From a phage, in sequence record PZ445417.1: 44,550 bases of DNA. The stretch is one strand, 5' to 3'. Below are positions 5,240-42,585 of this stretch, piece by piece (position 1 is the stretch's first letter; every line of letters starts with the position of its first letter). The translations under genes were made by a program, and so were the position numbers. The notes beneath the pieces are model-generated. The model made no database searches, was not told where the DNA came from, and saw nothing but the letters and a program-made list of their open reading frames with translations.

Positions 5240-5279
5240 TGCAACCAATATATTGCAACCAATACGCAGATTGCAAGCG
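5240..5279 (-). promoter_or_regulatory. promoter-like region with tandem ATTGGTTGCA motifs
   Basis: On the minus strand: TTGCAA, 18 bp, TATATT, with two ATTGGTTGCA copies, immediately upstream of the RBS of 4453-5217. The leader ATATTGGTTGCACACCAACAA is almost identical to the one at 39388-39410. Confidence 0.45.
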
Positions 5280-21071: not shown

Positions 21072-21092
21072 AAGCCCCTTTCGGGGCTTATT
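21072..21092. terminator. bidirectional terminator
   Basis: AAGCCCC-tttc-GGGGCTT hairpin with an A-run upstream and T-rich downstream, between convergent genes. Confidence 0.6.
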
Positions 21093-21306
21093 TGCAGGTT
21101 GTGCTTTTGAAGTGGTCAACTGACACATACTGGAAGTTAAACGGGTAGCCAGCCATGAGCATTTTGTGACCGCTAAAATCTGCGACCCCAAACACAGGGA
21201 CGGAATACTCCATGTCGCTATTCAGGTATGTCGCGTCGCAGATTTTAGACGGCATAGTGGAACAACCGGACAAAAGAACCGCACAAATCATAATTAAAGT
21301 TTTCAT
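21088..21306 (-). CDS. small lipoprotein, candidate superinfection-exclusion protein (Cor/Llp-like)
   Basis: 72 aa from the ATG at 21306. Signal peptide MKTLIMICAVLLSGC with lipobox LSGC and a Cys-containing mature part. Minus-strand gene between the J-like and fibre genes with its own promoter-like motif and terminator. Confidence 0.55.
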   Translation of the reverse strand: MKTLIMICAVLLSGCSTMPSKICDATYLNSDMEYSVPVFGVADFSGHKMLMAGYPFNFQYVSVDHFKSTTCK

Positions 21307-21337
21307 GGTATCATCCCCTATATTTGGTTGAGTTTTA

Positions 21338-21370
21338 GTATTACACCGCTCAACCAGGATTGCAACCAAT
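21338..21370 (-). promoter_or_regulatory. sigma70-like promoter embedded in an ATTGGTTGCAA motif
   Basis: On the minus strand: ATTGGTTGCAA (-35 TTGCAA), 16 bp, TAATAC, ending about 30 nt upstream of the lipoprotein start. Confidence 0.45.
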
Positions 21371-35369: not shown

Positions 35370-35879
35370 TTAATCTTCCAGTTCGAAATAGGTTTCGACG
35401 ATTTCTTTTAAATCTTTGTGGAAGTCTTCGACGTCGTCATCTTCCAGCTTGGCGATTGATTTGATTTCGAACGCGTCCAGCAGGTCGTCGAATTCGTCGT
35501 TCGCGTCGTCGTCGTCACCGCCGGCAATAATCGCGGCATACTGTTTGATTTCGTCGCGCATCTCTGCCAGCGGATCGGCATCTTTCTTACCTTTGCCTTT
35601 CGCCGGTGCTTTCTTAGCCTTAGCCGGTTTTTCGTCTTCGGCATCTTCGTCGTCATCTTCTACGACTTCTTTTTTGGCCTTACCTTTAGCCGGTGCTTTT
35701 TTAGTTTTCGCTGGTGCTTCGTCTTCAGCGTCGTCATCTTCTACGACTTCTTTTTTGGCCTTAGACGGCTTTTTATCTTCCTGCTTACCAACGGCAGCGC
35801 CAACGGTTTCATAATGTTTAGCGATGATTTCCAGTGCTACTACGCCGCGAGTGATCAGGTTTACGATTTGCTCAAACAT
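35370..35879 (-). CDS. acidic repeat protein (169 aa), first gene of the leftward early operon
   Basis: ATG at 35879 (GGAGA RBS). Internal ~22-aa tandem repeat KAKKEVVEDDDxEDExPAKxKKAPAKGK and a strongly acidic C-terminus, mirrored by a DNA tandem repeat around 35647-35763. Confidence 0.55.
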   Translation of the reverse strand: MFEQIVNLITRGVVALEIIAKHYETVGAAVGKQEDKKPSKAKKEVVEDDDAEDEAPAKTKKAPAKGKAKKEVVEDDDEDAEDEKPAKAKKAPAKGKGKKDADPLAEMRDEIKQYAAIIAGGDDDDANDEFDDLLDAFEIKSIAKLEDDDVEDFHKDLKEIVETYFELED

Positions 35880-36082
35880 GGTATATCTCCGATTGGTTAA
35901 GTTTAGGTGTCGACAGTTAACTTCGTCGGTGGCCTTAACATAGTGCCTGGTTGCGCGTTCTCCCTTTCGGGTAGTGGACCAGGTTATATAATCACGGTTG
36001 GGAATCCTGACACTTCGATCCGGCCCCTGCGTTGCCCCTCTCCAGTTTGCGTCCTGCATCCTGTCGACGGGGTGAATAATAG

Positions 36083-36115
36083 ATTGGTTGCAGGATAGGT
36101 GTCAACAACTAATTT
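36083..36115 (+). promoter_or_regulatory. rightward early promoter P1 (ATTGGTTGCAG motif)
   Basis: ATTGGTTGCAG (-35 TTGCAG), 16 bp, TAATTT. Confidence 0.45.
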
Positions 36116-36116
36116 C

Positions 36117-36175
36117 AAAAAAAAAAGCGCCGAAGCAAAATGCGACGGCGCTAACCAATAAGAGACAATGAGACG
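36117..36175 (-). ncRNA. candidate ~58-nt antisense small RNA
   Basis: Minus-strand promoter (plus coordinates 36181-36209): TTGAAA, 17 bp, TGT-AATAAT. Minus-strand terminator GCGCCG...CGGCGC plus U10 at 36117-36151. No ORF. Antisense to the leader of P1 transcripts. Confidence 0.3.
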
Positions 36176-36222
36176 GGAGTATTATTACACGCGTGCGCGC
36201 CCGTTTCAATATTCCAAAGGAG

Positions 36223-36251
36223 TTGACACCCCGCGGTTTTAGGTGTAGTTT
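36223..36251 (+). promoter_or_regulatory. rightward early promoter P2
   Basis: TTGACA, 17 bp, TAGTTT, about 30 nt upstream of the RBS of the HTH gene. Confidence 0.55.
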
Positions 36252-36282
36252 CGTTGGTCATTAACCAACCGGAGACAGAACA

Positions 36283-36612
36283 ATGAATATCGACGACGCA
36301 ATCGAAATGTTAACTAAGACTGTTTGCAGTGAGACAAGCCGGTCCTGGGCATATACCGATGCCGTGGGGGCGGTGTTATTCGAAATCGAACGTCTGCGCC
36401 GTGTCGAAAAAGAATTGCGCGCGAAGCTGGAATTACTCAACGGTACAGCAGCCAGCAAGCTGCAAAAGCACAATGAAGAAATGGAAGAATACAAAAAACA
36501 GGTTATCCGTTTGCGCGATGAGGGAAAGTCATGGGCGATGATTGCCGAGTTAACCGGAATTAATCAGAGCACAGTGCGCTCCTGGGTACGCAATAATAAA
36601 ACTTCTAAGTAA
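36283..36612 (+). CDS. HTH DNA-binding protein (putative regulator or replication accessory protein)
   Basis: 109 aa, GGAGA RBS. C-terminal helix-turn-helix KSWAMIAELTGINQSTVRSWV; coiled-coil middle part. Confidence 0.55.
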   Translation: MNIDDAIEMLTKTVCSETSRSWAYTDAVGAVLFEIERLRRVEKELRAKLELLNGTAASKLQKHNEEMEEYKKQVIRLRDEGKSWAMIAELTGINQSTVRSWVRNNKTSK

Positions 36613-39360: not shown

Positions 39361-39401
39361 ATTGGTTGCATCCGCCCTGGCACCCTGCTATATTGGTTGC
39401 A
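39361..39401 (+). promoter_or_regulatory. sigma70-like promoter with two ATTGGTTGCA copies
   Basis: ATTGGTTGCAT (-35 TTGCAT), 17 bp, TATATT, then a leader GGTTGCACACCAACAAGAGGAC nearly identical to the one upstream of 4453-5217. Confidence 0.5.
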
Positions 39402-42497: not shown

Positions 42498-42524
42498 AGC
42501 CCGGTAATTCCGGGCTTTTTATTT
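42498..42524 (+). terminator. rho-independent terminator
   Basis: AGCCCGG-taatt-CCGGGCT hairpin followed by TTTTTATTT. Confidence 0.7.
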
Positions 42525-42585
42525 CTTGACTTGCAACCAACATAGACGCCATACTGCGACCAATCAACAAGAGGAGTATTACACT

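Follow-up and report, generated by a model that had tools for sequence, protein, structure and literature searches.

Temperate phages offer many well-studied examples of small regulatory RNAs (OOP, sar, c4, PreS), but in virulent phages such RNAs are still scarce. Here we analyze a candidate for such an RNA in sequence record PZ445417.1, a phage DNA of 44,550 nucleotides (nt) which in its whole length is our window, and which is the complete or near-complete genome of a Dhillonvirus, of the HK578 / EP23 / SSL-2009a group of virulent Escherichia coli siphoviruses. The candidate unit lies on the minus strand between 36117 and 36209, and it consists of a promoter, which we call P_s, a short transcribed body, and an intrinsic terminator. 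It is housed in a divergent gap of 403 bp (35880-36282), flanked on one side by the ATG of the first leftward gene (35879) and on the other by the ATG (36283) of a gene for a helix-turn-helix (HTH) protein. On its sequence features, we class the unit as a putative phage-encoded small regulatory RNA (sRNA), restricted to Dhillonvirus and not previously annotated as an RNA in the records inspected.

By analogy, the described systems closest to this unit are the c4 RNA of phages P1 and P7 in working principle, and the enterobacterial Hfq-type sRNAs in gene anatomy. The c4 RNA is processed from the transcript that bears its target, belongs to the immunity region of a temperate phage, and pairs through loops. 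Like the RNA proposed here, c4 is a small phage RNA that pairs imperfectly at sites including a ribosome-binding site (RBS), blocks translation, and is encoded near targets that it does not overlap (reviewed in PMC12197685). Unlike c4, the Dhillonvirus RNA would be transcribed from a promoter of its own to a terminator of its own, would pair through a linear 5′ seed, and would have its two targets on transcripts that diverge, all in a virulent phage, and the two RNAs have no sequence similarity. With the Hfq-dependent enterobacterial sRNAs, including LPR1/PreS, the Dhillonvirus RNA shares a conserved single-stranded 5′ seed, a U/A-rich stretch, and a Rho-independent terminator with a long U tail, as well as the short imperfect pairing at ribosome-binding sites, which in our case is predicted. 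It differs from them in that its predicted targets are the phage's own early genes, the phage is a strictly virulent siphovirus, and the binding of Hfq is only putative.

Three other phage RNAs invite comparison. The OOP RNA of lambda is 77 nt long, has its own sigma-70 promoter and intrinsic terminator, and lies opposite the early rightward operon near the replication genes (PMC12197685). The Dhillonvirus RNA is also short, with a promoter and a terminator of its own, and has the same position opposite an early rightward operon and near replication genes; but OOP reaches into cII from its 3′ side and is a perfect complement of the pR transcript, of which a credible counterpart is probably lacking here. 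The sar RNA of P22 is a small RNA from a compact control region with close opposing promoters, and it acts on an RBS (PMC12197685). The compact region, the closely spaced opposing promoters, and the RBS as the (proposed) target are all found again here; however, sar is fully antisense to the ant RBS region and transcribed from inside that leader, whereas the Dhillonvirus complementarity is partial, and the sites are 100-270 nt away on other transcripts. Finally, the lambda 6S RNA (pR'-tR') also comes from a promoter closely followed by a terminator, in lambda a constitutive one, and is a short, abundant RNA upstream of an operon. The lambda unit is a substrate for Q antitermination into the late genes, while in Dhillonvirus the early or middle operon beyond the terminator has a strong promoter of its own.

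The predicted RNA and its signals

The elements of the unit are the following.

36204-36209, minus strand: -35 hexamer of P_s, TTGAAA, invariant in all of the 22+ distinct variants
36181-36189, minus strand: extended -10 element of P_s, TGTAATAAT, invariant in all variants
36187-36203, minus strand: full spacer of P_s, 17 nt
36190-36203, minus strand: G+C-rich part of the P_s spacer, alternating purines and pyrimidines, read from the sequence
36175-36180, minus strand: discriminator between the -10 and the predicted start, varying in sequence and length among relatives
36117-36174, minus strand: small RNA as predicted, starting at G36174 and ending with the U tract, about 56-58 nt long, with no conserved open reading frame (ORF)
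36153-36174, minus strand: single-stranded 5′ segment (candidate seed), GUCUCAUUGUCUCUUAUUGGUU, 22 nt, unpaired in the minimum free energy and centroid folds
36126-36152, minus strand: terminator hairpin, with helices of 7 bp and 3 bp on either side of a 2x2 internal loop, capped by UUU
36117-36126, minus strand: U tract, 10 nt (8-14 in relatives)

A preliminary description of this stretch, made from the sequence, had pointed to a promoter-like element on the minus strand at 36181-36209, and we find P_s in that place, with a 10/12 match to the sigma-70 consensus plus the TG of an extended -10, and a 17-nt spacer; the evidence that this score provides is only at the level of the consensus. When both strands of the 44.5 kb are scanned, only four sites reach a sigma-70 match of 10/12 or better, and two of them are P_s and P_L, the main leftward early promoter, which are in tandem. 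We roughly estimate at ~0.03 the chance that one of the top four promoters would fall, on the same strand, 30-120 nt upstream of a terminator such as this one. The predicted +1 is G36174, placed at the 7th nucleotide after the -10, and it is exactly there that conservation begins. We also observe that the spacer of P_s includes, at 36190-36203, a G+C-rich stretch of 13-14 nt in which purines and pyrimidines alternate (GCGCGCACGCGTG on the minus strand). Its substitutions in relatives are all transitions, which trivially preserve the alternation. The tract could form Z-DNA or respond to supercoiling.

The terminator lies ~55 nt downstream of P_s. On the minus strand it reads AGCGCCG-UC-GCA-UUU-UGC-UU-CGGCGCU (36152-36126), followed by U10 down to 36117, and it folds with -16.5 kcal/mol (z = -2.97 relative to shuffles), in agreement with the intrinsic terminator that had been proposed at 36117-36151. 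A terminator scan missed this hairpin because its central part was taken as a loop of more than 8 nt. A custom scan found only 8 hairpins followed by T6 in the whole genome, among which the sRNA terminator has the longest T run.

In the folds, nucleotides 1-22 of the predicted RNA are accessible, and they are nearly invariant among relatives. A U/A-rich stretch, UCUUAUUGGUUA, precedes the hairpin, which is followed in the different relatives by a tail of U8-14. This arrangement fits a putative Hfq-binding module, which Otaka in 2011 and Ishikawa in 2012 reportedly described as a U/A-rich stretch before a hairpin at the 3′ end with a tail of 7 or more U.

We considered the coding potential of the unit. 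An ORF of 36 codons on the minus strand (36151-36261), which a few records annotate as a protein, and another of 24 codons on the plus strand (36169-36243) were both rejected as genes, for they are frame-shifted, truncated or start-less in relatives. The preliminary description had noted that no minus-strand gene upstream would need a terminator here, which is right for ~3 kb, a stretch in which the plus strand carries the genes for the HTH protein and the helicase-primase. A search of the whole window against Rfam reported no family at the gathering score. With E-values up to 10, the region 35800-36350 produced only weak sub-threshold matches, driven by the terminator.

Conservation among dhillonviruses

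The 101-bp unit is present in 153 phage records, all of them Dhillonvirus and each covering at least 80% of the unit. Nearly every genome whose primase exceeds 80% identity (155 records) is thereby included. More than 22 distinct versions of the unit were collected, the sources being GenBank, IMG/VR and metagenome loci. The -35 hexamer of P_s and TGTAATAAT are unchanged in every one of them. The discriminator takes many forms (ACTCCC, AATTCCC, AATCCCC, ACTTTCC, AAAAACC, AATAATCAC), and from the predicted +1 the 22-nt body is invariant, save that one clade lacks 1 nt and that 5 nt are duplicated in isolate Opt212. In the hairpin, changes are restricted to unpaired positions or preserve the pairing, and the U tract is between 8 and 14 nt long. 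Across versions, the stem is paired in 100% of 150 cells, and it includes two compensatory pairs (G-C to U-A, and G-C to C-G) and one change from A-U to G-U. All these stem changes are found in the most divergent clade (LM40P1, Ioannina and two uncultured genomes). Because they are confined to one lineage, they amount to two pairs but to one evolutionary event.

This pattern of variation, with invariant hexamers, a free discriminator, an invariant body and a kept stem, argues for a functional promoter-RNA-terminator unit, which we consider likely to exist in dhillonviruses. We infer from it both the production of an RNA and its exact ends, and that the discrete short transcript predicted from the unit is indeed made seems to us quite probable. 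Thus, the core of the preliminary description, a non-coding unit of ~58 nt running from promoter to terminator in the divergent early control region, gains support from the conservation and from the compensatory stem changes.

Beyond dhillonviruses, the sequence of the RNA body is absent from Cornellvirus (Shemara and metagenome contigs, with primases of 43-46% identity) and from Kagunavirus, while the divergent layout of HTH protein and primase is kept. We inspected Shemara and fTaEco03 in detail, and neither has a comparable promoter-terminator unit; in Shemara, the gap is only 146 bp. Since the RNA body is absent from these more distant relatives, there is no deep covariation to exploit. 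A few 17-mer matches to the RNA body in IMG/VR outside dhillonviruses (one unrelated family, with three contigs of ~94-98 kb and two of 7-10 kb) we judged to be due to chance.

Of the published annotations, that of HK578 (JQ086375) places two minus-strand promoters and one plus-strand promoter here, and that of WF5505 places the terminator, in both cases by consensus search only. None of the records inspected annotates an RNA at the locus, and most annotate nothing there. Some GenBank and RefSeq records put short "hypothetical proteins" over the promoter and RNA region (Oekolampad gp49 and Bas85_0052/0053, for example). These ORFs are not conserved in frame, and they are probably annotation artefacts.

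Complementarity to the flanking ribosome-binding sites

The 5′ part of the RNA, 5′-GUCUCAUUGUCUCUUAUUGGUUA, is complementary to TAACCAATAAGAGAC. In the whole 44.5 kb, a repeat finder together with a pattern search identified three perfect copies of TAACCAAYNNGAGA and no more, each of them in this 400-bp region:

36262-36275, plus strand: RBS motif TAACCAACCGGAGA of the HTH gene (ATG 36283), a candidate target
35886-35899, minus strand: TAACCAATCGGAGA, RBS motif before the ATG (35879) of the first leftward gene, a candidate target
36152-36165, plus strand: third copy of TAACCAAYNNGAGA, the antisense of the RNA body

Allowing at most one mismatch, we find 4 matches where 0.25 are expected, and none of 100 shuffles reached 4. 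The seed, GUCUC-AUU-GUCUC-UUA-UUGGUUA, is an imperfect complement of RBS regions of the form UAACCAAY-NN-GAGAYA. The duplex predicted with the left mRNA has 8 bp, a 1-nt mismatch and 7 bp, and the one predicted with the right mRNA has 7 bp, a 2-nt mismatch and 8 bp; both cover the GGAG. The duplex energies of the seed range from -17.9 to -18.8 kcal/mol at the left RBS, and from -19.5 to -22.7 kcal/mol at the right RBS. Shuffled seeds average about -9 to -10 kcal/mol, compared to -17.9 / -19.5 for the real seed (p ≤ 0.005).

This potential largely persists where the surroundings change. The left RBS motif is retained across three unrelated types of leftward leader. In HK578, in which the right-hand gene and its leader have been replaced, the right RBS retains AACCAACCGGAGAC, with GAACC instead of TAACC. 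The energies at the two sites are -13.4 / -16.4 in the divergent clade, and -19.9 / -20.1 in Opt212, with its 5-nt insertion. The complementarity may also extend to other genes. The two GUCUC repeats of the seed complement Shine-Dalgarno sequences of the GGAGAC type, and GAGAC occurs in 7 of 33 non-structural ribosome-binding regions versus 0 of 24 structural ones.

These features suggest the following mechanism. The host sigma-70 RNA polymerase would start at about G36174 from P_s, a strong extended -10 promoter, and halt at the intrinsic terminator. The product would be a free-standing RNA of ~56-58 nt, unstructured over its first 22 nt and then folded into a hairpin that ends in a long U tail; it would overlap neither of the early mRNAs. 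Its seed would pair in trans, near its own gene, with the RBS of the HTH gene and that of the first leftward gene, and each duplex, of ~15 bp around a mismatch of 1-2 nt, would mask the Shine-Dalgarno sequence. As an effect, it would damp or time how these two genes are translated. Further early genes with GGAGAC-type Shine-Dalgarno sequences may be targets. What the sequence itself shows is the matches to a promoter and a terminator, the conservation, the compensated stem pairs and the complementarity; the involvement of Hfq, the pairing, and the direction of regulation are what we infer. If the RNA exists, that it works by pairing to these ribosome-binding sites comes close to an even chance. 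The joint claim of an RNA that is produced and then works in trans at both sites is our best guess; we put it forward only tentatively from the sequence, as one that may well turn out otherwise.

Several observations weigh against this mechanism. By duplex energy, the right target comes only 2nd and the left one only 10th of the 57 annotated ribosome-binding regions of EP23, and the seed contains GUCUC, a generic anti-Shine-Dalgarno sequence. In a genome-wide duplex scan, G-U-rich sites in coding regions elsewhere score as well or better, and so energy alone does not single out the RBS targets. We observe no covariation between seed and targets: pairing in the divergent clade is slightly weaker and uncompensated, and the seed is nearly invariant. 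The three copies of the motif could come from duplication, or from a shared function as translational enhancer or DNA site; the left leader resembles the leader of T7 gene 10, TTAAC...GGAGATATAC. The U tract could be conserved as the UP element of the next promoter. In one clade, a 2-nt deletion leaves P_s with a spacer of 15 nt. Finally, a literature search produced no Dhillonvirus transcriptome, no report of an sRNA, and no paper containing these sequences.

Alternative explanations

The other readings of the unit depend on the promoters that surround it.

36076-36105, minus strand: P_L, main leftward early promoter, TTGACA-18-TATTAT, 11/12, annotated by consensus in HK578
36223-36251, plus strand: P_R, rightward promoter, TTGACA-17-TAGTTT, read from the sequence; a promoter is annotated here in HK578
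36088-36115, plus strand: P1, the rightward promoter of the preliminary description, TTGCAG (36088-36093), 16 nt, TAATTT (36110-36115), weak
36083-36092, plus strand: copy of the 10-mer ATTGGTTGCA inside the P_L spacer, containing the TTGCAG of P1

P_L is the best promoter in the genome; it begins 11 nt past the U tract and drives the leftward operon. P_R keeps its hexamers and its 17-nt spacing in 17 of 18 variants, while the spacer sequence varies. Its transcription start would be near 36257, downstream of the sRNA gene, so that an HTH/primase mRNA from P_R would be free of overlap with the sRNA. Most likely, this is true of the HTH/primase mRNA as such. The preliminary description had instead considered the sRNA fully complementary to the leader of transcripts from P1, in the manner of lambda OOP. 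In that case, rightward transcripts would cross 36117-36174, the sRNA would pair perfectly with their leader, and the expression of HTH protein and primase would be lowered via RNase III cleavage or by collision between face-to-face promoters. The convergent geometry would indeed yield 58 nt of perfect complementarity, and the TTGCAG of P1 is part of a 10-mer that is a plausible -35 elsewhere (21365-21337, at a lipoprotein gene, and 39366-39394); both the 10-mer and TAATTT are invariant in relatives. But P1 matches the consensus in only 6/12 positions (3/6 plus 3/6, so that its -10 is poor), the promoter scan does not call it, and the length of its spacer differs among relatives (15, 16 or 17 nt). 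The bases of P1 are shared with the spacer, the -35 and the upstream region of P_L, and their conservation is already accounted for by their belonging to that 11/12 promoter. Other promoters with this motif have good -10 boxes (TATATT, TATAGT, AATACT), unlike P1, and the conserved rightward promoter sits downstream of the sRNA gene. An opposite-strand transcript across the sRNA gene is then unlikely, although P1 may be weak or dependent on a factor. There is no match to OOP in Rfam or in sequence, and we hold the likeness in arrangement to OOP to be weak and regard cis-antisense action as quite improbable. Another possibility is that the RNA is a by-product, and that the unit works at the level of DNA or transcription, with terminator and T tract insulating P_L from polymerases that arrive from upstream and acting as its UP element, and P_s, the divergent partner of P_R, coupled to it via supercoiling or competing with it for polymerase. 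The T run, at about -48 to -57 from the P_L start and followed by GAAATTAG, would be at the position of a UP element; 13 bp separate the -35 boxes of P_s and P_R, which stand back-to-back; the alternating spacer of P_s could respond to supercoiling; and the layout of a terminator and then a TTGACn promoter with TGCAACCAAY in the spacer recurs at ~42500-42560. Such a DNA-level function leaves unexplained why the transcribed body should be nearly invariant over 22 nt beside a freely varying discriminator, and why it should be complementary to both flanking RBS motifs. Moreover, an insulating terminator would be needless if P_s did not need to fire. We consider this explanation unlikely.

The remaining explanations accept the RNA but give it a different role. 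It could be an Hfq-dependent phage sRNA aimed mainly at host mRNAs, for which the match to the phage ribosome-binding sites would be secondary. There is a precedent in the lambda sRNA LPR1/PreS, which acts on dnaN (bioRxiv 10.1101/2024.10.31.621285). The 5′ seed, the U/A-rich stretch before the hairpin and the long U tail all fit this role, and so does a seed that is invariant across 153 genomes, as expected if it were constrained by a conserved host sequence. A BLAST search of the 37-nt seed region against E. coli genomes reported no match, which for a query of 37 nt in 28 Gb is uninformative. The threefold motif, confined to this locus, points instead to phage targets, and we find a mainly host-directed sRNA improbable. 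We give little credence to an attenuator or antitermination unit like lambda pR'-6S-tR', in which polymerases from P_s would as a rule stop after ~58 nt, and a later phage factor would permit read-through into the leftward replication operon. The strong promoter closely followed by a strong terminator upstream of a long operon would fit such a unit, but the downstream genes are for replication and recombination and not late genes, and no Q-like antiterminator or promoter-proximal pause signal turned up, although no search aimed at them was made. Further, the 11/12 promoter P_L comes directly after the terminator, so that read-through is not needed for the operon to be expressed. Finally, a primer or R-loop RNA for a replication origin beside the helicase-primase gene seems to us scarcely credible. 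The divergent region adjoins that gene, an A/T run is next to the hairpin, and the cumulative GC skew has its minimum near 35-36 kb; however, GC skew tracks gene orientation in this genome and is no indicator of an origin, there are no iterons and no extended AT-rich unwinding element, and the strong terminator releases the RNA. OOP, the historical precedent, proved not to be a primer (PMC12197685).

The surrounding genome and other loci

The region 35800-36700 matches 170 phage records with 80-99% identity. The gene blocks of the genome are arranged as follows.

1 to ~23.5 kb, rightward: structural genes
~23.6 to 35.9 kb, leftward: DNA polymerase, SSB, exonuclease and other genes
from 36283, rightward: HTH protein (109 aa), helicase-primase (756 aa), then lysis genes

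The HTH protein (36283-36612) matches domains of the HTH_23 and sigma-70 region 4 types, and on the HTH domain alone its gene is widely named "transposase" or "resolvase" in the records. The first leftward gene (35373-35879, minus strand) encodes a Lys/Asp/Glu-rich repeat protein of 169 aa, which belongs to phrog_3127, whose function is not known, and has no Pfam match. Inside this gene there is an 81-bp tandem duplication (35640-35760), and two identical 28-nt strings that are part of it, at 35649 and 35730, surfaced as terminator-like sites. For the genes around it, the public labels disagree ("hypothetical protein", "transposase", "DNA recombination nuclease inhibitor gamma").

Another structured RNA, ~175 nt long (35896-36070, minus strand) and with no match in Rfam, lies in the leader of the leftward operon. 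This leader RNA is found with 74-94% identity in unrelated groups of phages: in Drexlerviridae (tunus, slyngel, PHB17, KMI8), in Murrayvirus Lumpael, in Sortsnevirus IME279, in BUCT618, and in IMG/VR contigs, always in an intergenic gap and in sense orientation, and in some cases, such as BUCT618, with its own promoter directly before it. A covariance model was built in which 24 copies score 165-182 bits and 98.6% of the cells are paired. Compensatory changes occur in 7 of 25 pairs, compared to 0-2 in slid controls, and more covarying helices can be seen by eye. The fold of the single sequence is no better than that of shuffles, though the comparative analysis showed structure. Within dhillonviruses the leader RNA is optional, and it is seated inside a GUCGAC stem. 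From these alignments, it may be an undescribed family of phage RNAs: a riboswitch, a ribozyme, or a stand-alone non-coding RNA.

The 10-mer ATTGGTTGCA has 20 sites in the window with at most one mismatch (3.5 expected), of which 11 are perfect. They are at 5240, 5254, 21361, 24725, 24737, 26398, 26415, 26432, 29362, 29374, 36083, 38899, 38953, 38988, 39270, 39361, 39392, 39925, 42532 and 42555. EP23 has 9 perfect sites at syntenic positions, where 0.06 are expected. The sites cluster in intergenic control regions, in or beside promoters. The 10-mer often abuts a good -10 (ATTGGTTGCA-N-TATAKT), it sometimes supplies a TTGCAW -35, and it is found reversed in the promoter spacers of P_L and of 42526-42555. 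The copy at 36083 is followed by no good -10, and the bases after it are not conserved. The 10-mer is probably an operator or promoter element of a phage regulon; it is speculation on our part that the HTH protein, with its likeness to sigma-70 region 4, is a candidate to bind it.

Two further loci share elements with the divergent region. At ~21090-21365 on the minus strand, opposite the tail genes and between them, there is a small gene with its own promoter and terminator, unannotated in EP23. Its promoter (21365-21337) has ATTGGTTGCAA as the -35, 17 nt, and TGTAATACT, and its terminator is GCCCCGAAAGGGGCTTTTT. From its ATG at 21305 the ORF gives MKTLIMICAVLLSGC..., in which a lipobox belongs to a lipoprotein signal. 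From this sequence, the product is probably a lipoprotein of the superinfection-exclusion type. At ~42500-42560 on the plus strand, a terminator, GCCCGG...CCGGGC TTTTTATTT, is followed by a TTGACT promoter with the 10-mer reversed (TGCAACCAAC) in its spacer and CATACT as the -10. The layouts here and at P_L suggest a recurring junction between operons, a terminator and then a regulated promoter.

Significance

Dhillonviruses are among the most often isolated coliphages (153 records here), and include members of the BASEL collection and candidates for therapy. Whether or not the RNA is real, the genome annotations at this locus need correction. If it is not, the locus still shows a terminator, a UP-like tract and three promoters packed in 200 bp. 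In its widest form, our proposal is that one RNA governs early translation in both directions through the ribosome-binding sites of the two first genes, maybe together with a regulon of GGAGAC-type sites and possibly with the Hfq of the host; in that form we think it doubtful. If the RNA is real, a simple phage reliant on the host polymerase would have a post-transcriptional layer in its early programme, and the locus would provide a compact and easily mutated model, with a gene of 58 nt and two nearby targets.

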